A stretch of 64,000 nt of DNA from the NCBI GenBank assembly GCA_038087875.1, contig CM075988.1, positions 10,170,001 to 10,234,000 of the forward strand. Reading direction: 5' to 3'. Position 1 is the stretch's first letter. Every line of letters starts with the position of its first letter. Position numbers and translations under genes: made by a program. The notes beneath the pieces are model-generated. The model made no database searches and was not told the origin of the DNA. It saw only the letters and a program-made list of their open reading frames with translations. The stretch comes from Malacoraja senta (Eukaryota). This document shows positions 18,981 to 62,399 of this stretch, one piece after another.

Positions 18981-18981
18981 G

Positions 18982-23092: not shown

Positions 23093-23740
23093 TTTCAAAG
23101 GTTTCAAAGGTTTCAAAGGTTTTTTATTGTTACATATACCAATTAAGGTGCCGTGATATACGAATTACCATACAGCCATACGAAAAAAAAGCAACAAGAC
23201 ACACAACTACATAAAAGTTAACATAAACATCCACCACAACTGATTCCCCACATTCTTCACTGTGATGGAAGGCAAAAAAGTCCTTTCTACTTCCTCTTTA
23301 TTCTCCCGCAGTCGGGGCAGTCGAAACATCTGTCAGGGTGATCGAAGCTCCTGCAGCCGGCGGTCAAATCCCCCGCATCGGGCCGATCGAAACTCCCGCG
23401 TCGGTGCGATAGAAACTCCCGCGGCTTGGAGTTCCCGATGTCGGTCTCTGACCAGAGACTACGAGCTCTATGATGTTAAAGTCCGCAAGCACCCACGGTT
23501 GGAGCTCCGAGGTCGATCCCTGGCAAAGGGATCGCAGGCTTCGCGATGTTAAAATCCTGTCGGCTCCCCGCGGCGGAGCTCTCAAAATCGGTCTTGAGCA
23601 AAGGCCACCAACTCCTCAATGTTAGGCCGCAGTGTGGACGGAGAAACGATATGGAAAAAAATGGCATCTCCGTCAAGGTAAGAAATTAGAAAAAGTTTCC
23701 CCCACATCCCCCACCCCCCTCCCCCACCCCCACATAAAAC
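23093..23740 (-). mobile_element. GC/CpG-rich non-coding retroposon with Rex1-like 3' end
   Basis: (acctttgaa)n tail, AATAAA, 3' stem-loop, ccatcacagtga box, hairpin 23637-23674 homologous to 48081-48119. Confidence 0.65.
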
Positions 23741-24277
23741 ATGGCTTCTGCCAAAATGGCTCCCTGAGTTCCTGAGTTTCAACTTTTATTCCTAGGGATC
23801 AAGGATGACTTGTTTGCACTACAGTCCTGTGGGATCTCAGGTGGCCTCTGTGACACCTGGAGACAAGACTACAGGAGTGGCAGGAACTACCCCATGAGAT
23901 AGTTTGTGAAATGATATCCTCCAGCTGGCAATTACACATGTGTTTATGCAAGCAAGGTTCCCAAGGATGTGTTAAATTCTCCTTCCATTTTGAGCATTCA
24001 TGGGACAGAGATTCCCAGGAGAAAATGCAAAGACCACACCTGTCCAAGAAGGCTTTGAGAACATCCTTGACTCATTTTCTCGGTGGGAATGTGGTGACAC
24101 CTGATAGACACAAGGCCTACTCATCAACTAAGTACAATTAACACTCGGCACGGTGTATCCTCATTAATATTCACTCACACACACTATCGGTAGCCAACTG
24201 CACACACCACACACACCCAAGCAGAAAACGTGGAAACAGCTGGAAGGTCAAGTCAAGATTCAAGGGTGTTTCATATT

Positions 24278-25395
24278 GTTTAGTTTAGTTTAGTTTCGAG
24301 ATTCAGCACGGAAACAGGCCCTTCGGCCCACTGACTCCGCACCGACTAGCGATCCCTGCACATTAACACTATCCTACACACACTAGGGACAATTTTACAC
24401 TTACTGTATACCAAGCCAATTAACTTATACCTGTACGTCTTTGGAATGTGGGAGGAAACCGAAGATCTAGCAGAAAACCCATGCAGGTCATGGGGAGAAC
24501 GTACAAACTCCGTACAGACAGCACCTGTAGTCAGGATTGAACCCGGGTCTCCGGCGCTGTAAGTGCTGTAATGGGCCTGTCCCACAGGCGATTTTTTAGG
24601 TGACTGCAAGAGACTATACGGTCGCCACATGTTTGCGGGTGGTTACTGCGGAGACGCCTTCATGGTCATGAGGAGTTCCCGCATTCTGGGAACTAGTCAC
24701 GGCCTCATTATGGTCACTGCTAATTTGTCAACATGTTGAAAAATTAGCGATGACCAGAATGAAGCCGCCATGGAGAGTAGAGAGAATTCTCGTGCCGTAG
24801 GTGGGTCTCCAGGAGGTCCTAGTTGATTGCCAGGAGGTCGAAGGTTCTCGTAGGTTGTAGCAGGTGTTGACCAGTGAACTTCATTGGCTCATCGGGAAAA
24901 AAAACGTAAGCAGTAGTTTTCAGAACCAAGGATAACCGATGTTAATGTCCGCTGAGCTTCACAGCCGTGTATCTCTGGCCCCTTAAAAGTTGTCTCCACT
25001 CCTTCTCCCCCTTCTCCCCACTTCTCCCTCCTCTCCCCCCCTCTTTAAAAGGACTTAAGTGACCCTTCCCGTACACTGTGCTTTCACCGTCTTAATTACA
25101 GCGTCAACCTTCCTGTTCATCGCGGTGTGTGTCTGTATCACATTGGCTTTGCACCGTGTGAATTTCACTCAGACAGCGCTCCCCCCGCTTGCCCTGTCCC
25201 CCGCCTGCATAACGGGCTGGTGAAGGAAGCGATGTTTGTGTGTGTGTGTGTTCCACTCTGACAGTCGTCGTTCCAGATGCCGGTTTTTCAGGCAACTGCC
25301 GGCAACTTGACAGTCGCTGGCAGTCACATGAAAAATCGCCTAAGTGGGACAGGCCCATAAGGCAGCAACTCTATGGCTGCGCCACCATGGCCACC
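24278..25395 (-). mobile_element. V-SINE split by a MITE (SINE parts 24278-24571 and 25358-25395)
   Basis: SINE sequence gctgtaa|ggcagcaactcta is rejoined when 24572-25360 is removed. Confidence 0.8.
24572..25357. mobile_element. non-autonomous DNA transposon, PIF/Harbinger type
   Basis: TIRs tgggcctgtcccac / gtgggacaggccca (extending imperfectly to ~27 bp), TAA duplication at 24569-24571 and 25358-25360, no transposase ORF. Confidence 0.85.
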
Positions 25396-25775
25396 CACTC
25401 ATAAGTACCAAAACAGAACAAGAAATTCTTACTTGCAGCAGCACAACATGTTTGTAAACACAATACTCAATTAGATAATATAATGAACAAACACAAAAAA
25501 AGTTAATTAAAAAACCCCGATATAGTGTAAATAACAAAACAAAGCCCGAACCCCTTCGTGCAACCAAGTCAGTTGAAAGTTCAGAGTTTGGTTGGAGGTT
25601 GGAGTGTACAATGGGTGATGGTTGTTGGGGAAAAAACTGTTCCTGAACTTAGAGGTTTTGGTTTTCAGACTCCTATACCTTCTTCCTGATGGCTGCGTTG
25701 AAATGAGAACGTGGCCAAGGTAGTGTGGGTCCTTGATGGTGCTGGTTGCCTTTTTCAGACAGTGCCTCCTTTCGA
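25395..25775 (-). mobile_element. Rex1/Babar 3' fragment
   Basis: CLKKATSTIKDPHYLGH...PSGRRYRSLKTKTSKFRNSFFP C-terminal motif. Confidence 0.75.
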
Positions 25776-26984
25776 GCCCACTATCTCTCCTCCACTGTTC
25801 TGATGAACTCCTGGAACTGAGGTATTGGCCCTTGTTTTCTTGATCTGCTGAGTTTTTCAACATTTTGGGGGGTTTTATTTCGGATTTCCAGCATCATCGG
25901 TTTAAAATAATAAAGTTATTTGAAATAAATGAATTTCTCAACAGAATGGAAAACTGGACAACATATTGATAATATTTAATACGAGAAACGAAAAGATCAA
26001 TTGCAATTTTAATTAAGAGGAGCTGATTCCAAAAGCTGAGAAGAGAACATATTTTATATTATAAATGATAATTTAGGCAAGAACATGGTGGACTGTAATA
26101 GCCTGAGGTGATATATTCTGTGTGCATGAAAGAAAAATGAGTTATATAGTCATTGGGAAGACTTTAAGGTTATTTTTTTAAATATACGTCAAATAATGTG
26201 CAGAATTAGAAAAGACTAACAAAAGGGCGTTGCCTTTTTAGGTTTTATAGAGACAAAGAGTGTAAGAATAATGAAATAGATTTCTACAAAACCTTGTTTA
26301 AGCCGCATTCAGAGTTTTGAATATGGCTTTGAACACTTCTATATTAGGGAGGTATTCAGTCGGTAACCTCTTGGGACAATCTTTTTTTCTGAATTTTCTG
26401 TGCTTTGTCAAATCAGCATTTCTCACAAAGAGTAAAATAATTTTTTTGGATAGTTTTGTGCCTGCAGTTTATCTTTTTTTTCCTTTTATCATAATTCAAC
26501 AGTCAAATCTGACTCAGTAAATAACAGGACTTTGGAATGAATTGTGTCTTGGAAAATGAAATCTGATGGGGTACTGCCTATTTCTCTTCTCTTTACCTAT
26601 CCTTATCTCTACAAGGTAAAGTTTATATTCCTTACGTTTGCTGAGTGCACGTACCATTGAAAATACAAACCCACAAAGTGCTGGAATAACGCAGTGGGTC
26701 AGGCAGCATCTGTGGAGAACAGGGATAGGCGACATTTCTAGCCATGACCCTTCCTCAGACTGCAACACAGTCTTTGCAGACATCAATCACCATGGCATCT
26801 GCCATCAATCCAAACAGTGAAACAAGATCAACCTCAAAAGTAGCAGGAGCTTGGCTTCTTTGAAGAGAAAACATCAGTTGTATGCATACCATTATATATT
26901 CTCTATAGATTACATACATTACCTCATTTCCAGCTGTGACTTCTCTTTTGTCTCTTTGTATCGTCACTTAAAGAAAAGTTTTGA

Positions 26985-27404
26985 AAGTCACATTTGGAGT
27001 ATTATGTCTTCTGGTCACTCCATTACATGAAAGGGTGCAGAGGTTTACCAGAAGGCTGTATGGATTAGAGAATTTCACATACAGGCAAAGCTTGGATAGA
27101 CTGGGATTGTTTTCTCTGGAACATCAGAGGTTGAAGGGAAACTTGATAGAAGTATATAAAATGATGAGAGACTCGTATAGTGTAGACAATAAGAATGTTT
27201 TTTTCCCAGGGTTGAAATGTCCAACGCTAGAGGGCGTTGCTATAAGGTGACACAGAGAGTGCTGGGGGCCTGGAAGGCATTGCCAGAGGGAGGGGGTGGT
27301 GGAAGCTTATACTATAGTGACGTTTAAGAGGATTTTGGACAGGCACGTGGAAGTGTAGGGAATAGAGGGATATGAATCATGTACATGAGATCAGTTTACC
27401 TTTG
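26985..27404 (+). mobile_element. CR1 3' fragment
   Basis: ERVQRFTRRLYGL...LDRLGLFSLEHQRLKGNLIEVYKMM, a CR1 ORF2 C-terminus. Confidence 0.8.
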
Positions 27405-27745
27405 TATCCGACCACCCCGGGCCGCGGAGTTTGAGCCGGCCCGTCGCGGAGCACGGATTCGGCCGCTGGACTGGCTTACCGTCGCCCGGCGGGGCCACAG
27501 CATCAGAAGCCTGGATCGCCTCAGCGCAGAGGGAGAAGAAAGCGGGAAGAGACAGAGACTTTAAGACTTTTGCCTCCATCACAGTGAGGAGGTGCCTGGT
27601 GAACTCACTGTGGTGGATGTTAATTTGTGTTTATTGTGTGTTTTGTCATTTATTATTATATGTATGACTGCAGGCAACGAAATTTCGTTCAGACCGAAAG
27701 GTCTGAATGACAAATAAAGGAATCTCTAAATCTCTCTAATCTCTG
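27405..27745 (+). mobile_element. GC-rich non-coding retroposon (same family as 23093-23740), 5'-truncated
   Basis: hairpin 27576-27616, 11-bp stem with GAAA loop at 27685-27710, AATAAA, (aatctct)n tail. Confidence 0.65.
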
Positions 27746-27779
27746 TTCGGTACCAGCATTCTGTGCCGAAAGAATAAGC

Positions 27780-28055
27780 AGTAAGTCATTTAGAACGGAG
27801 ACGAGGAAACACTTTTTCTCACAGAGTTGTGAGTCTGTGGAATTCTCTGCCTCAGTGGGCGGTGGAGGCCAGTTTTCTGGATACTTTCAAGAGAGAGCTA
27901 GATAGGGCTCTTAAAGATAGCGGAATCAGGGGATATGGGGAGAAGGCAGGAACGGGGTACTGTTTGGGGGTGATCAGCCATGATCACATTGAATGGCGGT
28001 GCTCACTCGAAGGGCCGAATGGCCTACTCCTGCATCTATTGTCTATTGTCTATTG
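27780..28055 (+). mobile_element. CR1 3' end
   Basis: FFSQRVVSLWNSLPQ.AVEA..LDTFKRELDR; gggccgaatggcctactcctg; (tattgtc)n tail. Confidence 0.85.
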
Positions 28056-28381
28056 AAAGGATGAATCCAGTGCTGTACTGTTTTATGTAGTCTGAACACC
28101 CAAAACATCACCCATGCTGTCTCTCCAGAGATGCTGCCTGTCCCGCTGAGTTATTCCAGCATTTTGCATCTATCTTTGCTGTACTGTTCTATATTCTATG
28201 TTATTATTCTGTTCAATGCAGAGCAAAGTCACTACTTCACTAGAACACAAGAGTGACCAAATCCCATTGTTTCTTGTACCTATTGCAAAGGTTCCATTGG
28301 CTAATGGTCAAAATCCAAGAATCATACTGACATGAAAATGGAACTGGCTGGAAATAGATAATAGACAGAAATAGACATATT

Positions 28382-28409
28382 CTGAAGAAGGGTCTCGACC
28401 CGAAACGTT
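28382..28409 (+). ncRNA. minimal hammerhead ribozyme-like motif (GUU site) in a pLTR fragment
   Basis: ctgaagaagggtctcgacccgaaacgtt. Confidence 0.6.
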
Positions 28410-28489
28410 GCCTTTTTCCTTCGCTCCATAGATGCTGCCTCACCCGCTGAGTCCCAAGGTGCAATTGTTCTTATTAGTGTACCCAGCTG

Positions 28490-30217: not shown

Positions 30218-32404
30218 TTTAAGAAGGAACTGCAGATTCTGGAAAATCGAAGGTACACCAAAATGCTGGAGAAACTCAGCGGGTTAGGCAGCATCTATGG
30301 AGCGAAGGAAATAGGCAACGCTTCGGGTCGAAACCCTTCTTCAGACTGATGTGAGGGTGGGAGGGGGGGGGGGCGGAAGGAAGAAAGGAAGAGGTGAAAC
30401 CAGAGGGCTGAGGGAGAGCTGAGAAAGGGAGGAGAAAGTAAGGACTACTGAAATGAGAGAAGTCAAGGGTCATACTGCTGGGGTGCCACGCGCCAACTCT
30501 CAGACACCTCCTCCTACTTATCCTTGGACCATGACCCCACAGATGAGCACCAGGCCACTATCTCTAGCATCATCACTGACTTCATCAACTCCGGCTCCCT
30601 GTCCTCCCAATGCATCCAACCTCATCGTTCCCCAGCCCCGCACGGCCTGATTTTACCTTCTCCCCAAAATCCACAAACCTGACTGTCCTGGCAGACCCAT
30701 TGTTTCTGCCTGTTCATGTCCTACCGAACTTATTTCCACATACCTTGACTCCATCTTATCCCCCCTGGTTAAATCCCTCCCTACCTATGTTCAAGACACC
30801 TCACATGCTCTTCGTCTACTCCAGGACTTCCGTTTTCTAGGCCCCCATTCATCTTTACCATGGATGTCCAGTCACTCTACACCTCCATCCCCCACCAGGA
30901 GGGTCTCAAAGCCCTCCGTTTCTTCCTCGACCGTAGAACCAACCAATCCCCATCTACTGATACTCTCCCCTGCTTAGCGGAGCTGGTCCTTACCCTTAAT
31001 AATTTTTCATTTGACTCCTCCCATTTCCTCCAAATACAAGGTGTAGCTATGGGCACACGCATGGGCCCTAACTATGCCTGCCTCTTTGTAGGGTACATCG
31101 AACAATCCTTGTTCGAGATGTACCGTGGCCCTATCCCCGAACTCTACCTCCGCTACATCGACAACTGCATTGGTGCTACCTCCTGCACCCACACACAACT
31201 CACTGACTTCATCCATTTCACCACTAACTTCCATCCGGCACTCAAATACACCTGGACCATTTCCGACATTTCCCTACCATTTCTTGACCTTACTATCTCC
31301 ATCGCAGGTAATAGACTACTGACCGACATCCACTATAAACCCACTGACTCCCATGGCTATCTGGACTACACTTCTTCCCACCCTGTTTCCTGTAAGGACT
31401 CCATCCCCTACTCCCAATTCCTCCATCTACGCTGCATCTGCACCCAGGATGAGGTTTTCCACACCAGAGCATCGGAGATGTCCTCATTCTTCAGGGAACG
31501 GGGATTCCCCTCTTCTACCATAGATGAGGCTCTCACCAGGGTCTCTTCTATACCCCATGACTCTGCTCTCACTCCCCATCCCCCCACTCGTAACAAGGGC
31601 AGAGTCCCCCTTGTCCTCACCTTCCACCCACCCAGCTGTCACATACAACAAATAATCCTCTGACATTTTCGCCATCTCCAGCGTGATCCAACCACTTGCC
31701 ACATCTTCCCATATCCTCCCCTGTCTGTTTTCCGCAGAGACTGCTCCCTCCGTAACTCCCTGGTCAATTTGTCCCTTCCCACCCGCACCACCCCCTCTCC
31801 GGGCACTTTCCCTTGCAACCGCAGGAAATGCTACACTTGTCGCTTTACCTCCCCCCTTGACTCCATTCAAGGACCCAAGCAGTCGTTCCAGGTGCGGCAG
31901 AGGTTCATCTGCACCTCCTCCAACCTCATCTATTGCATCCGCTGCTCTAGATGTCAGCTGCTCTACATCGGTGAGACCAAGCGTAGGCTTGGCGATGGCT
32001 TCGCCGAACACCTCCACTCGGTTCGCAATAACCAACCTGACCTCCCGGTGGCTCAGCACTTCAACTCCCCCTCCCATTCCGAATCCAACCTTTCTGTCCT
32101 GGGCCTCCTCCATGGCCAGAGTGAGGACCACCGTAAATTGGAGGAACAGCACCTCATATTTCTCTTGGGCAGTTTGCACCCCAGCGGTATGAACATTGAC
32201 TTCTCTAATTTCAGGTAGTCCTTACTTTCTCCTCCCCTTCTCAGCTCTCCCTCAGCCCACTAGCTCCACCTCTTCCTTTCTTCCTCCAGTCCCCCTCATC
32301 CTCACATCAATCTGAAGAAGGGTTTCGACCCGAAAAGTTGCCTATTTCCTTCGCTCCATAGATGCTGCCTCACACGCTGAGTTTCTCCAGCATATTTGTC
32401 TACC
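30218..32404 (+). mobile_element. Penelope-like element: inverted 5' pLTR, truncated RT/GIY-YIG body and 3' pLTR
   Basis: duplication ttaggtacaagag at 30205-30217 and 32405-32417; inverted pLTR 30218-30486; hammerhead motifs 30317-30344 (-) and 32312-32339 (+). Confidence 0.92.
30487..32218 (+). pseudogene. PLE RT plus GIY-YIG pseudogene
   Basis: highly similar to the 15959-17700 protein; stops at ~30650 and 31661-31663, frameshifts, catalytic YIDD changed to YIDN. Confidence 0.88.
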
Positions 32405-33304
32405 TTAGGTACAAGAGGTTGTCTTTTGGTTAACAAAAATTAAAAGCGTGACGCTGGGCATGTTGAGAGAGAGAGTTAAATTGTTGAGTACAAGGGAATG
32501 GGATTTATTGATTGTTTCCTTGGTTGCATAGACCCAATGGGCTGAATGGCCTTCATTGCTTTAAAGTATTAGACAAAATAAGGTAATAACTGCATGCTAT
32601 TTCTTAGGATTAATTCAATGCATTTTCTGAATTCCGTTAATAGTAATGATTTAAATGTACACTTTCTGTGAACTATTGTGGGGAACTGATGGTATATCAA
32701 TGCAAGGTCTAAGTGGATGAGAGATATGAAATGAAAAACAGGCTCAGAAAAATTGAATGAATGAGAGAGAAAATAATTAATAAACACTTCTGTTCAATTA
32801 GATGGATTCTAGAAATTAACCACTTCCTGTTACCATGGCAACTTTAACATCCTACTTAAATGCTGCTGGAATTGAGCTTATTTGGAGATAATAGTGTAAA
32901 CATATCATTAACTCAAACTGGTGCTAGACCATGTGAAACTTGCTGCCAACTCTCACCAAAATAATGTGCTCCAAGAATGTGTGATACTGCCCGTGATGCC
33001 ATGTTTTAACATTCTCATATATTAAAACAAAATATTCAACCAATTACACGACAATTAATGGATGAACTGCTCAATTCTCTTCGTTTCAATAACTTATATA
33101 CTTGCCTGACTAAGCATCAGTTGAAACACTAATTAATTAAAATTAGCCTTTAGCAATTTAAACCAAAATGTTTCATTTGGTTAAGACTTGTGAGGTGGGA
33201 ATGTTACAATAATGTTGAAGTCACTGAGGATAAATATTTATCTTTTTTTTTTAATTTTTCACCTTTGGCACAAGGCTTTGTTTCTTTAGTTTACTTCCAA
33301 TACT

Positions 33305-33895
33305 CAGACTCATAGAGTCATAGAATCATACAGCATGGAAACAGGCTCTTCGGCCCAACTCATCTATGCCATCCAAGATGCCCCATCTAAGCCAGTCCCA
33401 TTTGCCCGTACTTTGCCTATATCCCTCTAAACAATTCTTATACATGTACAAGTGTCTTTTAAATGCTGTTATAATACTTGCCTCAACTACCTTCTCTGGC
33501 ACAAAAAGATGGAGTAACTCAACGGGACAGGCAGCATCTCTGGAGAGAAGGAATGGGTGATGTTTCGGGTCGAGACCCTTCTTCAGACTTCTCAGATTCA
33601 GATTCAGATTCAGATTCAACTTTATTGTCATTGTGCAGTGTACAGTACAGAGACAACGAAATGCAGTTAGCATCTCCCTAGAAGAGCGACATTAATATGA
33701 GCAGTAAATAAATAAATCTAATAAATCCTGGTGGGAGGAGTGTCCGGGGGGGGGTGTGATTGGCAGTCACCGAGGTACAGTGTTGAGTAGTGTAACCGCC
33801 GCAGGGAAGAAGCTGTTCCTGGACCTGCTGGTCCGGCAACGGAGAGACCTGTAGCGCCTCCCGGATGGTAGGAGGGTAAACAGTCTGTGGTTGCA
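33305..33895 (-). mobile_element. cluster: CR1 3' end (33305-33498), Penelope pLTR with hammerhead motif (33499-33590), Rex1 3' end (33592-33893)
   Basis: respective motifs; Rex1 part NHRLFTLLPSGRRYRSLRCRTSR.RNSFFP with (aatctg)n tail. Confidence 0.75.
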
Positions 33896-35700: not shown

Positions 35701-36044
35701 TTACGTTTTATTTTCTTCCTGGTTTATAGCATCATATGAGGTTTTAATTCATCAGCTGGCTACCCATGCACCTGCAAACACCCACACATTATCATCTTAT
35801 TATACTTGCCAGTTGTCATAATTAGCACAAAAAAAAACATATTTGCCAGTTAACACCTAAAAACGGTAGCAATATACTACTTACAGCTCCAAAAACTACA
35901 ATCTTACGAAACCTCCTATTCACATTCTTCTGGTAATGGGGGAGTTGATGGAGAGTGTTTCAGAGCTGCTGCCATAGGCTATGAAGATACTGGGCTGGAC
36001 AAAGAACGTGGTGGGTGCACATGAAGAGAGCAAGTTCTCTGTAA

Positions 36045-36321
36045 AGGGCCTGTCCCACTTGGGCATCATTTGCGCGTCACGCAGGTGGCGAGCGAAGATT
36101 TTGTGAATCCCAAAATCCAGGGGCGGCGCGCGCGACCGCTCGTCACTGCCTGTGCCATCACGTCTCACCACGTGCCATGCGCGCGTAATGCACGCCATGC
36201 GCACGTCACGTGCATGTCACGGCGCGCGCGTGACGCGTAAATGATGTTGTGTCATGCGTCGTGACGCGTAAATGATGTCGCGTAAATGACGCGCAAGTAA
36301 CGCCCAAGTGGGACAGGTCCT
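36045..36321. mobile_element. MITE, PIF/Harbinger-like TIRs, CpG-rich interior
   Basis: TIRs agggcctgtcccacttgggc / gcccaagtgggacaggtcct; same terminal motif as 24572-25357; flanks TAA/AAA (imperfect TSD). Confidence 0.8.
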
Positions 36322-36999
36322 AAAGGTTGAATGCTGAAAACGGTTATGGTTTGGACACAGGAATAACGTATATGAGACTGAGAACATACAAGAAGTTTTG
36401 TATTATACAGTTAACGTTGGATGCAAACAATAATTGTTGCTTTAAGGGTGTTTCTTCCTTCAGGATTCTGTTCTGCAGCTAACTGCTTTCCAGGTATCTT
36501 TCTACTGTAAATGGCTCGATTGTAATCATGTCTTGTCTTTCCACTTAACTTGTGGTTAGCACACAACAAAAGCATTTCACGTGACAATAAACTCAACTGA
36601 AGAGGTTGCAAAAAGTTTGTAGGAAGTTATGGTGAGGCAGCCTGTGAGGAGCCCTTGAATACCTCCATCAAACTCCTTCAGGGTGTGTTTCAATGTTGAT
36701 GTGATATGGATTTTTATTCTATGCAATATGATTGGATTCTTGTTCACATCTACTGGCTGGATCATCCATTTCCCAGCCGGCAGATCTTCTCCACATCTCT
36801 CCCACCCAAGCATTAACCGGGACTATGTTCATTTATTTAATTATACATTGGTAGCAAAGGAACTGTTTTGAGCTCCATGTTTCCCATGTATATTCATCTG
36901 TGCACTCTGCTCTGTTCTCGTGGATGGCAGGAATCCACAGAGAACAGTGAAGTCAATGGACAGACCTTTCCTACCAAATGATACCTGACTTTAAAATGG

Positions 37000-37455: not shown

Positions 37456-38388
37456 TTCACAGCCTTTTTGGACACGTAAACATATTTCATATCTAATTTG
37501 ATAGCAGCTTCAACATCTTCATGTCGTGCCCTGCACTTTCTGCCTAATTAGAAACCCTCTCACACCAATGAACTCCCTTTATCCTCTGGCTTCATTTATG
37601 TGGGACTGCGTTAACAGAATCAGCAGCATCTTCACAGTTCCCTCTTCCACTTCTTACTGGATAATTGCTCATTATGTGGAAGATATTTCCCACCTACTGA
37701 TTCAGAATATATGTGTCATTCATAGTCTTTTAATTTTCCACTTAACTGTGAAATGGCACAGCTGACAATTCGTTGCTGTTTGACTTTCCGGATTAAATCA
37801 CCCTTTAATAGTGGTTTCTTTGTGTGGCCAAAATGTTAACATTAAACAAAAACATATTCAGAGTTGCCGAAATGCAAAAGGCATAGGTAAGGATGCACAT
37901 GGAGAAATTATGAAATGATTTAGATTGCAATTTTCAATTCTGGTGCACAGGCATAATTCTACAATTGAATAGTTATTATAGAAATTTCAAACTGTGTTCT
38001 GTTAAAATCAACAGAGAAAAGATCAGGCACATTTTACAAGGGACAGGTGTTTCAGTTATCAGTTCCGCTCAGTCCAGTTTAATTTAATATCACATGTGCA
38101 GAGGTACAGTGAAAAGCTTTTTGTTGCGTGCTAACCAATCAGCAGAAAGACAATACATGATTACAATCGATCCATTTACAGTGTATAGATACATGATAAG
38201 GGAATAACGTTTAGTGCAAGGTAAAGCCAGCAAAGTCCGATCAAGGATAGTCCCAGGGTTATCAAAGAGGTAGACAGTAGTTCAGCACCTGTTCTCTGGT
38301 TGTTGTAGGACGATTCAGTTGCCTGATAACAGCTGGGAACAAACTGTCCCCGAATCTGGTGGTGTGTGTTTTCACATTTGTATACTTA

Positions 38389-38706
38389 AGCCGCGGTCTC
38401 CGGTAGGAAAGTGCCGATTTGGGCACTTCAAGCCGCGGAGTGTGTTTGACCGTCCCGACGTCAGAGGTTTGATCATCCCGACGAGAGGGCCTGTACATCG
38501 GGCCGTCCGTAGCGGCGACTACGGAAGGTTTATGGCCCCGACCACGGATAAACAAAGGAGGAGGACCGACTGAACTTTGTTGCCTTCCACCACAGTGAAG
38601 AATGCTGCGGTGAATGTTTGTTTTAAATTCTATTGTGTATTGTATGTTCTTTTTAAGTGTATCGCTGCTGGCAAATTCATTTCACTGCACCTTTAGGTGC
38701 ATGTGA
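38389..38706 (+). mobile_element. GC-rich non-coding retroposon family member
   Basis: ccgtagcggcgact...ggccccgaccacgg shared with 48530-48573; 3' stem-loop tcactgcacct-tt-aggtgcatgtga. Confidence 0.65.
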
Positions 38707-38902
38707 TCACGTTGACTTTGCCTGATGGGAGAGGAGAGAAGAGTGAGTGACCAGGGTGCGCTCATCCTTGATTACGCTGCTGGTCTTGCCGAGGCAGCGT
38801 GAGATATAAATGGAGTCAACAGAAGGGAGGTTGGTTTCTGTGATGGTCTGGGCTGTGTCCACAATTCTCTGCAATTTCTTGCAGTCGAGGATGGGGCTGT
38901 TC

Positions 38903-39540
38903 AGATCAGATTCAGATTCAGATTCAGATTCAAACGTTATTGTCATTGTGCAGTGTACAAGTACAGGGACAACGAAATGCAGTTAGCATCTCACCCAGAA
39001 GTGCGAACACAGAATAATGGAACGGTAAAATATATATATGTACAAACAGTAGCAGTAGTGCAATTTTCTGGGGGGTTGGGGGGGGGGAGATCAGTCACTG
39101 GGGGAAGGAGTGTCCGAGGGGGGGGGTGACTGGCAACCACCAAGGTGCAGAGTTAAGTAGGGTAACAGCCACAGGAAAGAAGCTGTTCCTGAACCTGCTG
39201 GTCCGGCAACGGAGAGACCTGTAGCGCCTCCCAGATGGGAGGAGGGTAAACCGTCTGTGGTTGGGGTGAGAGCAGTCCTTGACGATGCTGCGCGCCCTTC
39301 GCAGACATCGCTTGCTCTGGACAGACTCAATGGAGGGGAGTGAGGAACCGGTGATGCGTTGGGCAGTTTTCACCACCCTCTGCAGTGCTTTCCGGTCGGA
39401 GACAGAGCAGTTGCCATACCATAATGTGATACAGTTAGTAAGGATGCTCTCGATGGTGCAGCGGTAGAAGTTCACCACAATCTGAGGAGACAGATGGACC
39501 TTCTTTAGTCTCCTCAGGAAGAAGAGACGCTTGTGAGCCT
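38903..39540 (-). mobile_element. second Rex1/Babar 3' fragment (same subfamily as 33592-33893)
   Basis: NFYRCTIESILTNCITLWYGNCSVSDRKALQRVVKTAQRITG...RNSFFP; (aatctg)n tail. Confidence 0.85.
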
Positions 39541-40349
39541 TCCCAAACCAAGCTGTGTTGCATCCTGATAAAGCACTTTCTATGGTCCCTCTCTAAAGTT
39601 GGCGAGAGTTGTGAGGGACAAGCCAAACTTCCCAAGCCTTCTAAGGAAGTAGAGTTAGATAAAAGTGATGTTAAACTTTACTTCCTCATAAAGATAATGG
39701 CATACATATCTGCAAACATGCAGACACACACATTCATTTGTGGATGAGCATGTGTTCAATCTGACACGAATGCATATGAATAAATCTGCAATAACTTATA
39801 AACATAGAGAGGTATATACAATCTGAATATATGTATCAATTCAATTGTGCATGAAAAATTCAAATGTACTTGTCAGGAAATACTGTATATGTCAAATTCA
39901 TAACATGAAATGAATTTGTAAATACGCACAGACAGATTTAAACAAAAGTGATTCAGGGGCATTATTTCTTTCTCAGAATTTGGAAGTGGAAGATAATATG
40001 GGAACTTAAAAATACGCTTGATTTGTACCCTACATGCTTGTTCCACACACCATTGACAAACAGTACACTGCCTGCTGTGTGTTCCACATAAAATTCACTG
40101 TAATTACCTACTCAGACTAATCTAACATTACCTCCCAAACCCACAAACTCTGCTACCAAGAAGGAAAGGGCTGCAGGTGTATGGTAAAACCAGGTTGTAC
40201 ACCATTCTGACTTGGAAGTGATTTTCTGTATCGTTGCTGGGTCTAAAGCCTGGAGGTTCCAACCTAACAGCACCATGGAAATACCTCCATCGAATACCAT
40301 TCACATGGTAGAATGGTGGCATTCACATCACATGAGACAAACAGTCAAT

Positions 40350-40780
40350 GATTCCATTCCCACTCCCAGCCTTCCCAATCCTACCATCAATTGGATCTAT
40401 AAGAGGCAATGCCTCAAGAAAGCAGCCAGTATCAACAAAGACCCACAGCACCTTGGCAACACTCTCATTTCACCCGTACCATCAGGAAGAAGGTCTAGGA
40501 GTCTGAAAAATGTGATGACCAGCTTCAAGATTAGCTTCTTCAAGCCATTGAGCATGACACAACATTAACCTCAACTGTGAACTACAGTATCTTGGTTGCA
40601 CTAAGGACTTTGCTTCCCTTTGCACTAGTATTGGTGTTATTAATTAATTTATTTTTTTGTTTATTATATATTATCTGTTTATTGTGTTTACAGGCCTGTT
40701 ATCCTCCTGCAAGTAAGAATTTCATTGCACATTGTTGATACATATGACAATTAAGCTCTCTTTACTGTTGACTCTTGAAA
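40350..40780 (+). mobile_element. Rex1/Babar 3' fragment
   Basis: YKRQCLKKAASINKDPQHLG...PSGRRSRSLK...FKISFF. Confidence 0.7.
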
Positions 40781-41539: not shown

Positions 41540-42012
41540 TTAGTTTCATTTAGAAATTTCGGTCCACCAAGTCCGCGGCGACCAGTGATCCCCACACACT
41601 TACACAATCCTACACATACTGGGGACAATGTACAATTATACCAAGCCAATTAGCCTACAAACATACATCTACATATGGAGCGTGGGAGGAAACAGGAGAT
41701 CCCAGAGAAGACCCATACAGATCACAGGGAGAACATACAAGCTCCATATAATAATAATAATAATGAATTTTATTTACGGGCGCCTTATACCGAGGTCTCA
41801 AGGACACCTTACAGAGATTTATAGGAAACATATAATCAGAATTTAAAAAATAAGTTATAAAGACCTTCAAATCAGGGACAGAATTCCTTCCAAAAAGACA
41901 AAAAAAGAAAATCAGAAATTTGAGGAGAGAGCAGCGGCAACGAAACCGCGCCAGCGTCCACTCTCCCCTCTGACCCGTAGTCAGGATAAAACCCGGGACT
42001 CCGTGCCACCCT
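41540..42012 (-). mobile_element. V-SINE interrupted by an L2-type 3' end (~41748-41972)
   Basis: SINE core on both sides; the insert ends (minus strand) gtgtccttgag...aaggcgcc...aaataaaa(tta)n, an L2-like terminus. Confidence 0.65.
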
Positions 42013-43520: not shown

Positions 43521-43979
43521 TGTATCCACAAAAAAACATAAAGCTTTCGCCTCAGAGACTTGCATTGATTGTGGAGGAAAGATCGTTGAATGACCCTTCA
43601 CCATTCTTTCAAAAAATTGATTCCTTTCCCATCAGCACAGCACTCTAATACTGGCCTCCTACACTGGAGAGAAAACAAATTACATCATATGCCAATATCT
43701 ATAAGACGCGGAGTGGTTTTCTATTGGTGTCTTAATTTAGAAGCAGGGAATGCAATGTCCAAGAGTTATTTCCCAGCATTTATGCCGTTAATCTGATTTC
43801 AAAAGAGCAGTGCAGACTAGTGCCCATGGAGAAGGCAGGGTTTATAGCTGTTGCTACTGTTTGGCAACCGTATTTAACAACATAAATAACAGGCACCAAC
43901 TGGCAGCTGCCTGGTTCCCATAATCAGGCTGAAAGGCAGCAAACGCAGAGTCAACATTTCCTGATTGTGCAATGTAATT

Positions 43980-44590
43980 AGAGTCATAGAGTCACACCGC
44001 ATGGAAACAGGCACTTCAGCACAATTTGCCCACACTGACCAACATGTCCCATCTACACCAATCCAACCTGCCTGCGTTTGGCCCATATCCCTCTAGACCT
44101 ATCCTGTCCATGTACCTATCTGAATGTTCCTTAAACATTGCAATAGCACCTGCGTCAACTACCTCCTTCAGCAGCTCGTTCCATATACCCACCACCCTTT
44201 GCGTGCACTTAAACGTCTGTCTCACCTGGAAGGACTACTGGGGGTCACTGGATGTAATTGAGAGAGGAGATGTAGGGACAGGTCTTACACCTCCTACAGT
44301 TTCAGGGCAAAGTGTCTGGGGAGGAGGTGGGTTTGGTGGGACGGGCTGAGCATAACAAGGAGTGACAGAGAGAGAGTGGTCTCTACAAAAGCGGAAAGGG
44401 GTGGGGACAGGAAGATGTGACTGATGGCGGGATCATGTTGAAGATGGAAGAGGTGCACGTACAACTTTGTTTCACCTCCTGTCCTTTACACCAGCGAGTC
44501 CAATCATAGATTAGGCGACGGTTTCACCAAACACTTGTGTTCTGTCTTCCATGTCCTGGTGGAGCACCTCAGTTGCTAACTGTTTTAACT
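43980..44590. mobile_element. CR1 3' end (43980-44200, -) followed by inverted Penelope linker/GIY-YIG scraps
   Basis: QRVVGIWNEL..EVVDAG; 44205-44450 resembles 16270-16510; 44490-44590 resembles the plus-strand GIY-YIG. Confidence 0.55.
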
Positions 44591-44759
44591 GATACTCCTC
44601 AGACAATAATGGGAGGAAAGGACAAGCCGTAGAGAGGACATCGGCTCCAGGAGACAGGAGAAGAGGGTAGCGAAAGACAGTCTGGTAGAATGTTTTGGCA
44701 ATGTGATCTCAGGGCTCAGGCCTGTTGAATTAAGTGAAATTCCTACAGTGACTGCATTG

Positions 44760-45395
44760 GCACCTTAAACCTATCATTCTTCATTCCGCCACTCTGGGTA
44801 AAAGACTGTGCATGTACCCTATCGATTCCTCTCATGATCTTATACACCTCTATAAGATCACCCCCTCATCCTCTTGCACTCCAAGGAATAAGGTCCCCAG
44901 CCTGCTCAACCTATCGCTATAGGTCAAGTCCTTGAGTCCTGGCAACATCCTCGTAAATCCTCTCTGTACTCTTTCCAAATCAACATCTTTCCTATAACAT
45001 TGTGACCAAAACTGAACACAAGACTCTAAATGCAACCTCGCCAATGTCTTATATAATTGTAACATGACCACACAATTTCTATATCCAATACTCTGACTAA
45101 TGAGGGTCAATGTGCCGAAAGCCTTCATGACCACCCTATCTACCTGTGATGTCTCTTTGAAGGGACTATGTACCTGTACTCCTAGATCCTTCTGCTCTAC
45201 AACACTCCACAGAGCCTTGCCATTCACTGTGTAGATTCTGCCCTGGTTAGACATCTCAAAATGTAACACCTCACACTTCTCTGTATTAAATTCCATCAAC
45301 CATTCCTCAGCCCACACGCCCAACTGATCAAGATCCTGCTGCGATTTTTGAGAACCATCTTCACTATCTACTATACCACCCACTGTACCATGTCA
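44760..45395 (-). mobile_element. CR1 ORF2 C-terminal fragment
   Basis: GGIVDSEDG...QQDLDQL..WAEEWLMEFNTEKCEVLHF...KDLGVQV...LYKTLARLHLESCVQFWS. Confidence 0.85.
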
Positions 45396-46043
45396 ACTGT
45401 AAAAATTGAAATATGATTAGGCTTTCTTTGATTGCCCTGTTCAAAATTGAGTTTGAAGTGACACTGATTTTGAGTGTCCTTTTGGTTCTGGTTACTCATA
45501 ATCAATTTGTTATGACTGATGAAGTAATTTTTAAAAACCTTGTACATTAAGTAGGACTTTGTTGGTCTCTGGCTGGACTTGTGTATAAGCATATTATTGG
45601 TTATATTGAACATTTCATCAAACATTCTTCATATTTCTTCTTTCACTTGCACTCCATCTCATTCAGAATTCATAGTATAACCTGAACCATCAGTACCATA
45701 TTAAGTTGAGCAAGCAAGATGCAGAACTAGTTCCAGCAGCAATGTTCAGTCCCTGTCCAGTAGCCTCCAGGTCAAGGAATAACAATTAATCTCATAAGAT
45801 GTGTTTCCTCTTCGGAACCAAGGTTCTCAGACTCTAGGATAGGTGATGAGAAAGACTGGCAAAGGTTGTGGAATAATTTAATTCAGGGAAGACTAAAAGC
45901 AATGTGCGATCCATTATTGTTGCTCTTTAGAAATCACGAGAGTGCTCTTCAAACTCTATTCCTTCCAGTCTTTACAGCCCTTCCCCGCAGTTGAAAGACA
46001 AATCCTAGTGATTGGGGTCACAAACATCGACGTGATTGAAAGT

Positions 46044-46243
46044 NNNNNNNNNNNNNNNNNNNNNNNNNNNNNNNNNNNNNNNNNNNNNNNNNNNNNNNNN
46101 NNNNNNNNNNNNNNNNNNNNNNNNNNNNNNNNNNNNNNNNNNNNNNNNNNNNNNNNNNNNNNNNNNNNNNNNNNNNNNNNNNNNNNNNNNNNNNNNNNNN
46201 NNNNNNNNNNNNNNNNNNNNNNNNNNNNNNNNNNNNNNNNNNN
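46044..46243. other. assembly gap (200 N)
   Basis: run of N; true length unknown, so contiguity across it is not guaranteed. Confidence 0.99.
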
Positions 46244-46377
46244 GGTCGTTGGTCGGAACAATCCCAGTGGGCCGAAGGGCCTGTTTCTGCGCTATCTATA
46301 ACTAAACTAAACTTAACTCTTGACCCCTCTTCCTCTGGTTGCTTTTTCTTTCTCCACTTCCCCCCAGTTTCACTTGT

Positions 46378-46612
46378 TTTAGAAAGAACTGCAGATGCTG
46401 GTAAAATCAAAGGTAGACGCAAAATGCTGCATGGAGTAACTCAGCAGGCCAGGCAGCATCTCTGGAGAAACGGAATAGGTGACATTTCCGGTCGAGACCC
46501 TTCATCAGACTGAATGGTCCGATGAAGGTGTCTCGACCCGATACGACCCCTATTCCTTTTCTCCAGAGATGCTGCCTGACCCGCTGAGATACTCCAGAAC
46601 TTTGTGTCTACT
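46378..46612. mobile_element. Penelope fold-back unit (hammerhead motif with CUGAUGA at 46481-46508, minus)
   Basis: inverted pLTR arms around a ~10-bp spacer; decayed PLE RT scraps follow at 46620-46990. Confidence 0.75.
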
Positions 46613-47010
46613 TCCTGTTTCATGGTCCCCGAGACTCACACATCCTACCCACACCTAGTAGGCCCATCATTTCAATTTGTTCATTACCCACACCATCTAT
46701 ATCTTCAAACCATGATTCTATTCTTTCTCCCTTTGTCAGTCTTTTCCCACTTACATCTGTGAAATGTCTGATGTCCCCACCAACTCCCTTTCCTCGAGGA
46801 AGTCCAATGTCACTGGACCTCCATCCCACACCACAATGATCTGGAGGGCCTTCCATGTATTCTTTGAACATAGGCTCAATGACATACCCTCCATCAACAT
46901 CCTATGCTTGGCTGAAGTTGTTCTCACATTGAACTACAGCTTTAACTCCACTTCATTTACTTCCTCCAAACCAAAGATGTGGATTTGGAAACATGAATAA
47001 GTCTAAGCTC

Positions 47011-47197
47011 AAGATAGACACAAAAAGCTGGAGTAACTCAGTGGGACAGGTAGCATCTCTGCAGAGAAGGAATGTGGGTCTCGACCCTAAACATCACCCA
47101 TTCCTTCTCTGCAGAAATGCTGCCTGGCCTGCTGAGTTACTCCAGCTTTTTGTGTCTATCTTCGCTTTAAACCAGCATCTGCAATTCCTTCCTACAT
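47011..47197. mobile_element. Penelope fold-back unit, 187 bp
   Basis: inverted arms; duplication ataagtc(t/g)aagctc at 46997-47010 and 47198-47211. Confidence 0.8.
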
Positions 47198-47284
47198 ATA
47201 AGTCGAAGCTCTCTCTTTCTCTTTGTGGGATACATGAAACTTGTTGGGAATTTAAGGATATGGATCATGTGCCGGCAGATTAGA

Positions 47285-47597
47285 TTAGTTTAGTTTAGTT
47301 TAGAGATACAGTGTGGAAACATGCCCTTCGGCCCACCGAGTCCATGCTGACCAACGATCCCCGCACACTAACAATATCCTACACACACTGGGGACAATTT
47401 ACAGTTTGACCGAAGCCAATTAGCGTACAAACCTGTACATCTTTGGAGTGTGGGAGGAAAATGGAGCACCCAGAGTAAACCCACACGGTCACGGGGAAAC
47501 GTACAAGTTCCGTACAGACGGCATCCGTAGTCAGGATGAACCCGGGTCTCTGGCACTGTAAGACAGCATCTCTCCCGCTGCACCACCATGCTGGCCG
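47285..47597 (-). mobile_element. V-SINE, full length
   Basis: reverse complement of 111-420 type with (taaac)n tail. Confidence 0.85.
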
Positions 47598-47923
47598 TTA
47601 GTTTATCTTTGCGTCATGTTCAGCACAAACATTGCAGGCCGAAGGGCCTGTCCCTGAGCTATGTTTTAGTCCAACCACAATCTCCTTTACATCTTTTTCT
47701 CGTACATTAATGATCACAGCACTGTTTCCTTTTCTCATACTTGCAATTTTTCATTAACTTTGCTGCCAATTTGAATAGAGCTAAACTCCAAATGGTGTTG
47801 TTAATAATCAGGGATTGTTTAATTAAATCCAAGGAATGTCCTATTATATAATACAATACAATAATACTTTATTAGCCAAGTATGTTGTGCAACATACGAG
47901 GAATTTCATTTGCCAAGTCAGTC

Positions 47924-48770
47924 TTTCCACTAGGGGTGCTGCATTGTAGGCGCCTCTGCCTACAGCCTGTCCGTTTTTTCCTATATTTTTTTAATTTTAG
48001 TTTGTCTAAACAGTTTTGTTTTGGGGATTCTTTCGTTTTTCTATGTGGGGGAGGGGGAAACCGCTTCCCAGTTGTTTCCTGGCGGGGATGCGACTATTTC
48101 TCCGAGTCGCGTCCTTGCCCCCCACCTCGCGGCCTACCACTGGATCAGAGCAGCCTTTCCTAACGGAGACTGGGGGCCGGACCAGAGCTTCGGCAGTGGC
48201 GGCGCGGCGCTGGATTCACCGCGGAGTGGGCGATACCTACCTGGATCGCCGTTTGAAGCTCCGGAGCGTTGGTCCCGCCGCTCCAACATCGCGGGGCTGT
48301 GGTTCGCGGTGCTCCCAGCACGGGCGGCGCTGACCAACATCGCGGAGTCCTGGGGCCCTTTGCCGAGGGCCGCCAGCATTGAATCTCCGCCTGGCGCGGC
48401 CTGGGGACGTCGGGAGCTGCGGACTCCGATGGGAAGCGGCCGATTCGGAGGTCCAAGCCACTGAGGTTGGCCTCCCGTTCCAATGTCGGAGTGCCAACAT
48501 CCCAGCGAGCAGGCCTGAGCGGCGGGCTGCCCGTAGCGGCGACTGCGGAGGGCTCCGGAGGCCCCGACCACGGGTGAACATCAGAGGGAGATGACTGACT
48601 TTGGTGCCTTCCCTCACAGTGGGAAACTTTTGATTCTGCTGTGTGGGGATGTTTTATGTTGAACTCTATCGTGTGTTGTATTCTTTATTTTATTGTATGG
48701 CTGTATGGTGATCACATTTCACTGTGCCAACTGGCACATGTGACAAATAAATGTATCTTGTATCTTGTAT
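47924..48770 (+). mobile_element. GC/CpG-rich non-coding retroposon, longest copy, inserted in an antisense relative (47849-47923 and 48771-48880)
   Basis: 15-bp hairpin 48081-48119, repeated ccaacatcgcgg, 3' stem-loop tcactgtgcca-ac-tggcacatgtga, AATAAA, (tgtatct)n tail; flanks match 4965-5142 in reverse. Confidence 0.7.
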
Positions 48771-48949
48771 CATACAAATAAAAAGTAACAGAACACACAA
48801 AATACATTTTAACATAAACATCCACCACAGTGACTCCTCCACATTCCTCTCTATGGAAGGCGAGTAAAAGTTTGATCTCTTCCCTTCTTAGTTCTATTAT
48901 GAGACTGTTCATACAGTTATCCCATTTTTGCATCCACTCCCGACGCATT

Positions 48950-62385: not shown

Positions 62386-62399
62386 CCGTTATATGCCTG

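Follow-up and report, generated by a model that had tools for sequence, protein, structure and literature searches.

The 64,000-nt stretch of the Malacoraja senta genome analysed here (the window) harbors a genuine family of retroposons, represented by six copies (c1–c6) that together comprise 2,551 bp, or 4% of the window. When complete, the element measures about 850 bases and contains no gene. We consider it likely that these are non-autonomous, non-LTR, probably pol II-transcribed retroposons moved by Rex1-type enzymes. No description of the family was found in the published literature, and an entry in Dfam or Repbase is possible.

Six copies share a 3′ architecture

All six copies proposed in an earlier note on this DNA exist, and their hairpin and linker are mutually homologous (blastn, 67–89% identity, E 1e-6 to 1e-38). 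An upstream hairpin, a GT-rich linker, and a terminal stem-loop are common to all of them. The longest copy, c5 (47924..48771, plus strand, 848 bp), is probably full length and the only one to reach the presumed 5′ end; its 5′ boundary is exact, with no reverse transcriptase (RT) upstream. It lies as an antisense insertion within c6, separating the 5′ half of the latter (hairpin and linker; 48772..48889, minus strand) from its 3′ half (terminal stem-loop, AATAAA, and tail; 47849..47923, minus strand). The insertion shows 2 nt of overlap and lacks a long target duplication. The suggested split of c6 was borne out by reads and contigs of four of four sequencing runs, which join 47915/47921 to 48770 and so contain the uninterrupted form.

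The other copies bear out the proposed variable 5′ truncation. Copy c1 (4943..5145, plus), which starts at 4943 rather than at 4965 as previously reported, lacks the GC body and shares both its 5′ breakpoint and its tail class with c6. Copy c2 (23093..23740, minus) begins at about position 120 of c5 and has 23-nt tandem modules in its body and a 9-nt tandem tail, while c3 (27405..27745, plus) combines an unrelated or highly diverged GC body with a perfect 11-bp terminal stem closed by a GAAA loop and a third tail class. The 5′-truncated c4 (38389..38706, plus) is an antisense insertion in a Rex1-type 3′ fragment. A poly(A)-signal hexamer and a tandem tail had been ascribed to the family at large; c4 departs from this description, with neither AATAAA nor tail and with a deletion in its hairpin.

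A CpG-rich body with signs of CpG decay

The GC-rich body of the architecture described earlier is present in four copies (c2–c5), whereas c1 and c6 have none at all. These bodies contain 56–69% GC with a CpG observed/expected ratio of 0.94–1.25, compared to 0.48 for the window. That of c5 (48046..48600, plus) is built from degenerate 23–51-nt modules with a AACATCGCG-type core and is homologous to the bodies of c2 and c4, the three being similar to one another at z 11–25. Similarity of the c3 body to that of c2, c4, or c5 was not significant (z 0.7–2.8), so the copies may represent more than one family. As for the AACATCGCG motif described as recurring, its exact form occurs three times in the window, once in c2 and twice in c5, and nowhere outside these two copies.

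The earlier note further inferred that the family seeds CpG-island-like patches. In composition, it does provide four of the 19 such patches in the window, but the claim is weakened by CpG decay: of 17 T>C or A>G differences listed for c5 against related sequences, 14 fall in a CpG-decay context (p 6e-5), a pattern that argues against protected CpG islands and is expected of methylated repeats.

Hairpin, linker, and 3′ terminus

The family-specific upstream hairpin maps to 48606..48652 (plus) in c5, 4977–5014 in c1, ~23230–23269 (minus) in c2, 27572–27620 in c3, 38580–38621 in c4 (the copy with the deletion), and 48813–48862 (minus) in c6. It folds in c1, c2, c3, and c5 with z-scores of −1.7, −1.1, −4.2, and −3.6, and its consensus comprises 13 pairs, two of them with compensatory change. 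The hairpin was not found in Rex1-type loci; the sole match to its motif among 103 such loci (L028) lies within the RT ORF and was dismissed as chance. In c5, the hairpin is followed by the GT-rich linker (48653..48715, plus), with a terminal GTATG(A/G)CTG motif common to the copies, and by a Rex1-type 3′ end (48716..48771, plus) consisting of ATTTC, a stem-loop, TGACAAATAAA, and a 7-nt tandem tail.

The terminal stem-loop, likewise part of the original description, proved strong in c3, c4, and c5 (z −4.7, −2.8, and −3.5); in c1, c2, and c6 it is weak, at z −0.4 to −1.0. Over the whole 3′ 160 nt, folding was significant only in c3 and c5 (z −5.4 and −2.5), not in c1, c2, or c4. Evidence for a family "conserved in structure" comes from few sequences: in these, the terminal stem is 80% paired compared to 13–48% in slid controls, but it does not beat shuffles, 57–128 of 500 being as good on pairing and covariation measures.

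Tails match several Rex1-type LINEs

A likeness to the window's own Rex1-type ends had been noted, and it holds for c5, c2, and c4 (p 0.004–0.008; c2, 0.008; c4, 0.006) and for c3 (p 0.037), but not for c1 (p 0.73) or c6 (p 0.16). A profile built from five in-window Rex1-type ends picked c5 only, with a score of 20.7 that is within the null maxima of 14.8–21.4. We also compared the copies with 54 distinct ORF-anchored Rex1-type tails from outside the window, using 191 AATAAA/ATTAAA-anchored 49-mers of the window as null. None of the 191 scored as high as c1, c3, or c6, and one as high as c5; c2 (58/191) and c4 (74/191) remained unmatched in this external set. Copies c1 and c6 thereby match a different Rex1-type tail class, known from outside the window, and every copy has a counterpart among the ORF-anchored Rex1-type tails of one reference set or of both. 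Three classes of 3′ end can be told apart, and for each there is an ORF-anchored Rex1-type LINE of its own with a matching tail, a pattern suggestive of several partner lineages or of tail exchange; in this, the family is broader than first proposed. From the shared tails only, we infer mobilization by Rex1; that the partner LINE is a "Rex1" is likewise inferred.

The likeness does not extend to the body, which had no match among the 103 Rex1-type loci—these stem from other fish hosts, not M. senta—nor among in-window Rex1-type fragments, save in one of 12 comparisons (c2 versus the element at 7967, scoring 62 against a shuffle maximum of 50). That element (7967..9660, plus), a candidate member of the partner clade, is a 5′-truncated Rex1-type LINE with RT and PF09004, one in-frame stop, a 3′ stem-loop, and a TTCA tail, and shares up to 84% identity with elements that have one ORF of ~990 aa. 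The fragment hosting c4 (38065..38901, minus) has an end at ~38081–38120 that is ORF-anchored to an RT-LINE fragment; no other in-window end matches the tails of c4 and c5 as well. A second 3′ fragment lies at 38900..39592 (minus), with a relative at 33592–33892 (minus), and a further Rex1-type lineage is found at 25400–25968 (minus) and 40380–40765 (plus). Scans of viral contigs for Rex1-type proteins yielded no confirmed case, and our literature search found no paper linking DUF1891 with Rex1.

No gene, no tRNA head, and a strand-biased transcript

The copies were said to hold no credible ORF. We agree: four long c5 frames had no Pfam match, there is no RT homologue, and the longest sense ATG ORFs span 96 aa in c5 and 63 aa in c2, with single-base indels among relatives. 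Neither the AP endonuclease/RT ORF of an autonomous Rex1/Babar LINE nor a conserved ORF1-like protein of the HAL1, HeT-A, or Ag-Sponge type was found in c5. A 176-aa stop-free frame of c5 was rejected as a protein, with no match in one search and three among 1.84 billion proteins in another, of which two are translations of family copies and one a chance Fn3 match.

The absence of a tRNA head was confirmed, in that ARAGORN called no tRNA gene and Rfam gave no match at gathering score; tRNA, 5S, 7SL, and snRNA families were missing from c5 and c2 even at E 10. The c5 head (47924..48045, plus) comprises ~45 GC-rich nt followed by a T-rich part with T6 and T7 runs, and its likeness to the window's tRNA-SINE heads was not significant (p 0.11). 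Using generally known patterns for the pol III A and B boxes, we detected no B box at one mismatch in any of the four copies tested (c2–c5); the same patterns found A or B boxes in seven of nine resident SINE heads. Runs of T6 and T7 stop pol III. Since they occur within 100 nt of the c5 start and a B box is lacking, transcription by pol III appears improbable. Two further Rfam leads were discarded, namely an HDV-like ribozyme at 48365–48443 (internal, 18.8 bits against a gathering score of 50, E 4.5; none in four copies by descriptor search) and other weak matches (E 0.8–8) taken as chance.

Whether the head resembles Rex1-type 5′ ends received mixed answers. It had no nhmmer match to them and a pairwise p of 0.46, and a Gibbs motif search of Rex1-type 5′ regions found nothing beyond the T-rich tract. 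A post hoc anchored 5′-end profile with a T-rich term placed the start of this one copy at rank 1–2 of 127,840 positions, and at rank 27 without that term (12 when CpG decay was considered).

In a polyA RNA run from a related species (X23), first mates at 47940–48739 were 164–616 deep on one strand versus 9–150 on the other (one bin, 95 versus 17), the deeper strand being sense on our assumption of a dUTP library. Over the antisense c6, the bias is reversed (744 versus 99), and depth is nearly flat from the c5 5′ end, where no pile-up of molecule starts was reported. These strand-biased reads are an indirect sign of the probable transcription of the element by pol II, and the sense RNA could stem from host genes using it as a last exon. 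Positions 48183–48458 of c5 match the C-terminus of the little-skate THAP3 RefSeq model, which ends in ~95 aa of sense-strand family sequence.

Public sequencing runs showed the family to be high-copy. In run X1, summed contig depth—which is not copy number—rose from ~30 in the flank to 13–22k at the c5 5′ end and 270–700k over its 3′ part, a profile indicative of high copy number with a 3′ bias. The RNA and DNA runs come from different organisms. In an index of public runs, none of those listed as containing the family is recorded as RNA, which says nothing about expression. Exact-motif scans of viral and metagenome contigs gave no matches.

A model for mobilization and its alternatives

We propose that pol II would transcribe full-length copies from a promoter inside their 5′ end, probably acquired from the 5′ end of a Rex1-type LINE. 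The single ORF protein (endonuclease and RT) of a resident Rex1-type LINE would bind the last ~45 nt of the RNA and copy it into DNA by target-primed reverse transcription, with priming at the tandem tail; incomplete copying would give rise to the 5′ truncations. The upstream hairpin probably helps RNA stability or RT engagement and, more speculatively, may stall RT, given that c1 and c6 both start ~35 nt upstream of it. Subfamilies would keep hairpin and linker, while template switching or recombination supplied them with tails of three or more Rex1-type lineages; they would therefore follow whichever partner is active; inserted copies would be methylated and then lose CpGs. In its most far-reaching form—a hitherto undescribed superfamily of pol II-driven, ORF-less skate retroposons with a Rex1-derived promoter head, a CpG-rich modular body, and a conserved hairpin of their own, served by at least three Rex1 lineages through swaps of the last 45 nt—we offer this reading tentatively, as one that may well not hold in full.

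Were the copies instead 5′-truncated 3′ UTRs of autonomous, skate-specific Rex1-type LINEs with an unusually long GC-rich UTR, the Rex1-type tails, the 3′-biased depth, and the tandem tails would fit equally, and the external loci do come from other fish hosts. Yet c5 holds no ORF remnant in its 848 bp, hairpin and body are absent from in-window Rex1-type 3′ UTRs and from 75 of 75 external ones, and the called 3′ UTRs of the 54 loci reach at most 633 nt (median ~225). Together with a single hairpin and linker joined to three tail classes, and with none of the 24 loose ends listed (2022 more) lying upstream of the start of c5, this makes long UTRs an unlikely origin. Even less probable is an element dependent on Rex1 but devoid of its own promoter, its head unrelated to Rex1 and its RNA supplied by host read-through or as an alternative last exon (acceptor at ~48168, AATAAA at the end). 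The THAP3 model, the mixed head tests, and the missing start pile-up would suit such an element; strand-biased RNA is, however, as deep upstream of 48168 (200–566 at 47940–48179) as downstream, and no spliced joint inside c5 stands out among the 15 RNA joints listed (157 more). We give least credence to an ordinary pol III SINE with a head of tRNA origin that has been lost from, or has decayed in, each of the six copies. Sea anemone does provide a case of a tRNA SINE with a Rex1 tail (in the excerpts of PMC3747384 and PMC3472496 used here) and the c5 start faintly resembles the window's tRNA-SINE heads, but this likeness is that of p 0.11, the B box, T-run, and small-RNA results (none at E 10) speak against it, and 850 bp is long for a SINE.

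Comparison with known retroposons

That a LINE moves passengers via a shared tail is already well known. Of the features that strictly define a SINE, the skate family has a LINE-derived 3′ tail and a non-coding body, and lacks the small-RNA head and, in c2–c5, the internal A/B-box pair. Closest to it are the bipartite ORF-less LINEs (Bov-A, RTESINE1/2, WALLSI3, RIME, NARTc, and Vingi and R2 derivatives), which, in the portions of PMC5786205 cited here, share the missing ORF and small-RNA head and the LINE-derived 3′ end, and may also share a LINE-derived 5′ end and pol II transcription, but not the Rex1-type partner. They consist of LINE 5′ and 3′ parts only, whereas the skate family adds ~650 nt (CpG-rich body together with hairpin and linker) unmatched among the LINEs compared (those of other fish hosts and in-window fragments), and hence is not a simple internal deletion of a LINE. 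Autonomous Rex1/Babar LINEs resemble it in the short oligonucleotide repeat after the 3′ end, 5′ truncation, the lack of ORF1, and a GC-rich then T-rich start (excerpts of PMC6274825 and PMC13343379), and differ in their endonuclease/RT ORF and in lacking the extra body and hairpin.

Among SINEs, Nematostella SINE2-5_NV, which shares a short 3′ stretch with Rex1-24_NV, is similarly non-autonomous but is a tRNA-headed pol III SINE of a sea anemone, with a tail not evidently like the skate tails by eye (portions of PMC3747384 and PMC3472496). The chondrichthyan HE1/HER1 (V-SINE), SacSINE1, SacSINE1-LE, and SINE2-1_CM (= SINEX-1_CM) have host group, high copy number, and tail exchange in common with it; features reported in parts of PMC3747384 and PMC5499810 set them apart, as all have a tRNA head, a tail of CR1 or L2 type, and a shorter length (at most 463 bp in SacSINE1 copies). 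In the headless EhLSINE, EdSINE1, and Chlamydomonas SINEX-1/2/4_CR, too, a LINE tail is combined with a promoter whose origin is unknown, but their partners are R4 or RandI and their hosts protists and algae, and the table in PMC3747384, as excerpted, includes no vertebrate or Rex1 case of such a headless element.

A headless 850-bp element is apt to be overlooked by SINE finders and to be annotated in skates, by mistake, as LINE UTR or "unknown"; the present one has a CpG island-like composition and turns up in gene models. We found no account in the literature of how Rex1/Babar LINEs recognize their own RNA; partners sharing only ~45 nt with three Rex1-type lineages point to a minimal recognition signal and render stringent versus relaxed recognition testable. 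According to the parts of PMC13343379 consulted, Rex1/Babar LINEs are abundant in rays, with the highest Rex1 coverage among the vertebrates sampled, and are the CR1-group elements most often transferred horizontally. If the superfamily reading is true, it would provide the first vertebrate case of Rex1 mobilizing a non-autonomous partner and would make the family a major supplier of CpG-rich DNA and of alternative last exons to skate genomes, and Rex1 would join RTE, Ingi, Vingi, and R2, the only four sources of ORF-less non-autonomous LINEs in the 2018 listing (PMC5786205, in excerpt).

Copies and architecture of the family

Using blastn and alignment, we delineated six copies of the retroposon family: c1 (4943–5145, plus strand), c2 (23093–23740, minus), c3 (27405–27745, plus), c4 (38389–38706, plus), c5 (47924–48771, plus) and c6 (minus; two parts, 48772–48889 with 47849–47923). 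Together they occupy 2,551 bp, or 4.0% of the window, and c5—at 848 bp the longest and probably full length—is 70–78% identical to the others over the aligned parts. In all six, a GT-rich linker joins an upstream hairpin to the terminal stem-loop, and no credible ORF was found in the family. The upstream bodies, built of degenerate modules (period 23 nt in c2 and c4, 51 nt in c5), are homologous among c2, c4 and c5 (z 11–25 against 100 dinucleotide shuffles). The c3 body showed no homology to these three (z 0.7–2.8), c1 and c6 have no body, and c4 carries neither AATAAA nor a tail. The earlier note had proposed one non-coding family of conserved structure; the family is real and abundant, and its uniformity is weaker than claimed.

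The 5′ starts of c1 and c6 (4943 and 48889), which belong to the same subfamily, lie at the same base or at most 1 nt apart, some 35 nt 5′ of the hairpin; these copies may represent a short 200-bp subfamily or a reverse transcriptase stall site. Copy c5 is nested in c6; the junctions overlap by about 2 nt and lack a long duplication, and the uninterrupted form was present in all four sequencing runs examined. Similarly, c4 is nested in a Rex1-type fragment.

Probable Rex1-type LINEs share the tail of the family

Six ORF-anchored fragments of a single LINE clade lie within the window, the largest of which harbors RT and PF09004 domains and reaches 84% identity with ~990-aa single-ORF proteins on 3.2–3.9-kb contigs. 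Judged by its domain layout, this clade is probably Rex1/Babar; the label stays at probable since ORF1 is also absent in some L2 lineages. It fits the features given in two publications, namely the lack of ORF1 with highest coverage in rays (PMC13343379) and an oligonucleotide repeat following the 3′ UTR (PMC6274825). Two more short Rex1-type 3′ ends (36491–36600 and 50780–50905, both plus strand) have an internally deleted terminal stem-loop. Animal Rex1-type LINEs were also seen in the assemblies of named bacteria and in MAGs (23 loci, L081–L103), a location that points to contamination of those assemblies with host DNA.

To compare tails, the 3′-terminal 50 nt of every copy were compared with six in-window LINE ends (five ORF-anchored, one found via DNA similarity), with 3,000 random window 50-mers as null. 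Copies c5 (p 0.004), c4 (p 0.006), c2 (p 0.008) and c3 (p 0.037) resembled these ends; c1 (p 0.73) and c6 (p 0.16) did not match any of the six. The second comparison drew on 103 loci that encode relatives, from host DNA in metagenome or genome contigs (80 of 455, plus 23), of which 75 had a mappable ORF end and 56 a rule-called tail, 54 of them distinct; several visibly wrong calls (e.g., L005, L012, L044 and L099) were kept in the set. Of 191 AATAAA/ATTAAA-anchored window 49-mers, none scored as high against the external tails as c1, c3 or c6 and one as high as c5, while c2 (58/191) and c4 (74/191) showed no match to the 54 tails above this null. In terms of best partners, c1 and c6 pair with L015/L024, c3 with L004, and c5 with L082 and the in-window end at 38082–38120, the class to which c2 and c4 also belong. 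From the two comparisons it thus follows that three family tail classes correspond to three LINE tail classes, and Rex1 tailing is better supported than the earlier note, which had seen a Rex1-like 3′ end, could show. A profile built from the five in-window ends alone gave no discrimination. Across six sequences (four family, two LINE), pairing in the terminal stem reaches 80% versus 13–48% in slid registers, and its pairing in these six was not above that of shuffles.

The 5′ end of c5

Among 36 external LINE 5′ regions, 23 distinct ones start with GGCG(C/G), and in many of these a further GC block and a T-rich tract come next, a layout visible by eye at the c5 start. Neither an HMM search nor a pairwise test detected it there. 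In a third, anchored profile, position 47933 ranked 2nd of 127,840 positions (1st when allowing for CpG decay) and, without the T-rich term, 27th (or 12th). Because this profile was designed after c5 had been seen, a Rex1-derived head counts as a lead, with perhaps an even chance of being right. A ~220-bp element at 41750–41975 (minus strand) scored level with the c5 start in the profile; it begins GC-rich and then T-rich and ends in a stem-loop and (ATT)n. This end looks L2-type, and the element is possibly another small LINE derivative of the non-autonomous kind. At its very start (47926–47941), c5 may resemble the CTCF core motif, in this one copy and with a 1-nt gap.

Abundance and transcription

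At least 20 rows of the run index, from 14 studies, include part of 47800–49000; the 14 best contain 0.39–0.54 of its words and span nine organism codes. In the DNA sequencing run X1, summed contig depth—which does not equal copy number—rose from ~30 in the flank to 13–22k over 47940–48059, 18–275k over the body, 270–700k over 48540–48779 and 1.2–1.8 million on c6-type sequence; c1/c6-type sequence had the highest depth of all. A second DNA run, X2, gave a similar profile. This means that the family's copies number in the thousands or more and that 3′ sequence is in excess.

Transcripts were seen in X23, a polyA RNA run from a different organism, in which ~6% of reads are concerned and 89% of the mapped reads continue into sequence unlike the mapped stretch. 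First mates on c5 were biased several- to twenty-fold to one strand, and the bias was reversed on c6; if the library is of the dUTP type, RNA on both copies is sense. From 47940 onward the RNA depth stayed roughly even, in contrast to the DNA depth, and the best-supported rows listed showed no pile-up of molecule starts.

Gene models and CpG content

Among named sequences, the family's nearest relative resides in a gene model of Leucoraja erinacea, which makes a skate or a near relative the probable host. In XP_055520024.1, a predicted THAP3-like isoform X2, the 92 aa at the C-terminus match the sense translation of 48183–48458 (48%, E 2e-12). This suggests that family sequence was captured as an alternative last exon in the predicted model. 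A pyrimidine tract (48150–48185) with an AG at 48167–48168, a possible cryptic splice acceptor, lies just upstream of the point where the isoform enters family sequence.

CpG-island composition is found in 19 patches of the window, four of them supplied by c2–c5. Among 28 differences inside c5, taken from the best 40 of 321 listed, 17 are T>C or A>G, and 14 of these re-create a CpG (34% expected; p 6e-5); the source family is therefore even more CpG-rich than c5, which decays like methylated DNA. Given this decay, the family is weaker as a source of functional CpG islands than the CpG-island-like patches of the earlier note would imply.

Other elements in the window

The window is repeat-rich animal DNA. 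Its largest CpG-rich patches are made by two related Penelope-like elements with RT and GIY-YIG (15746–19000, minus; 30485–32408, plus); 1.95 kb of them align at 86% identity, and short fragments are numerous in other places. Two non-coding, MITE-like elements (24570–25378 and 36043–36322) have their terminal inverted repeats (GGGCCTGTCCCAC) in common, as well as TAA-like flanks; their interiors are CpG-rich and differ, and the pair is perhaps PIF/Harbinger. The former splits a tRNA-SINE. The window also carries about ten copies of a 300-bp SINE that has a tRNA head and both A and B boxes (116–419, 24277–24564, 47285–47590, 51215–51514 and others), and ~25 of a shorter repeat core (e.g., 4624–4800), probably HE1/V-SINE. 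Complementary terminal and internal repeats (52053–52137 with 63821–63904; 63619–63696 with 63851–63928), together with degraded reading frames that resemble RNase H and recombinase, point to a putative DIRS-type element at 52050–63930. It is interrupted at ~53780–61000 by L1/Tx1-like LINE pieces (endonuclease) with an inverted segment (58525–59368 versus 60148–60986). An N run at ~46040–46250 is an assembly gap, read as X in translations.

Probable mechanism and alternatives

The data show the anatomy, tails, abundance and nesting of the copies and the strand bias of the RNA. We infer the promoter, the enzyme and the exchange of tails, and consider the following course probable: pol II would transcribe from the element's own 5′ end, a Rex1-type protein would recognize the terminal stem-loop, and target-primed reverse transcription would start at the tandem tail, leaving 5′-truncated copies, with tails exchanged between partner LINE lineages.

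That the family instead represents an unseen LINE's long 3′ UTR strikes us as unlikely; its likeness to LINEs ends at the tail, and its body was unmatched in the 103 loci. Slightly less likely still is a promoter-less element supplied by host transcripts. Least likely of the three is a SINE that has lost its head: no resemblance to tRNA, 5S, 7SL or snRNA turned up, nor a B box in the four copies tested (c2–c5), and the likeness of the c5 start to resident tRNA-SINE heads gave p 0.11. A pol II-transcribed, Rex1-tailed retroposon is the reading we prefer.

Comparison with known systems

The family is undescribed in the literature searched, which omits most subscription papers, and the accessible parts of PMC7599744, PMC9004415 and PMC3708506 contain nothing on it. 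It could already be held in Dfam, Repbase, the supplement of PMC13343379 or its Zenodo consensus set, and in that case may well stand there as an automatically generated consensus with no name. As far as the available text of each source goes, ORF-less bipartite elements are listed only from RTE, Ingi, Vingi and R2 (PMC5786205, Kojima 2018), one Rex1-tailed tRNA SINE is recorded, from a sea anemone (PMC3747384; PMC3472496), and the SINEs known from chondrichthyans have a tRNA head and a tail of CR1 or L2 type (PMC3747384; PMC5499810).

From a strict SINE the family differs in its head and in A/B boxes. With bipartite non-autonomous LINEs it shares the 3′ end; at the 5′ end, a single copy, c5, ranks 1st or 2nd of 127,840 positions in the anchored profile, with no match by HMM or pairwise test, and, on the sequences compared (103 loci and the window), the family does not consist of LINE parts only. 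In how it works, this real and abundant Rex1-tailed retroposon resembles both bipartite non-autonomous LINEs and SINEs.
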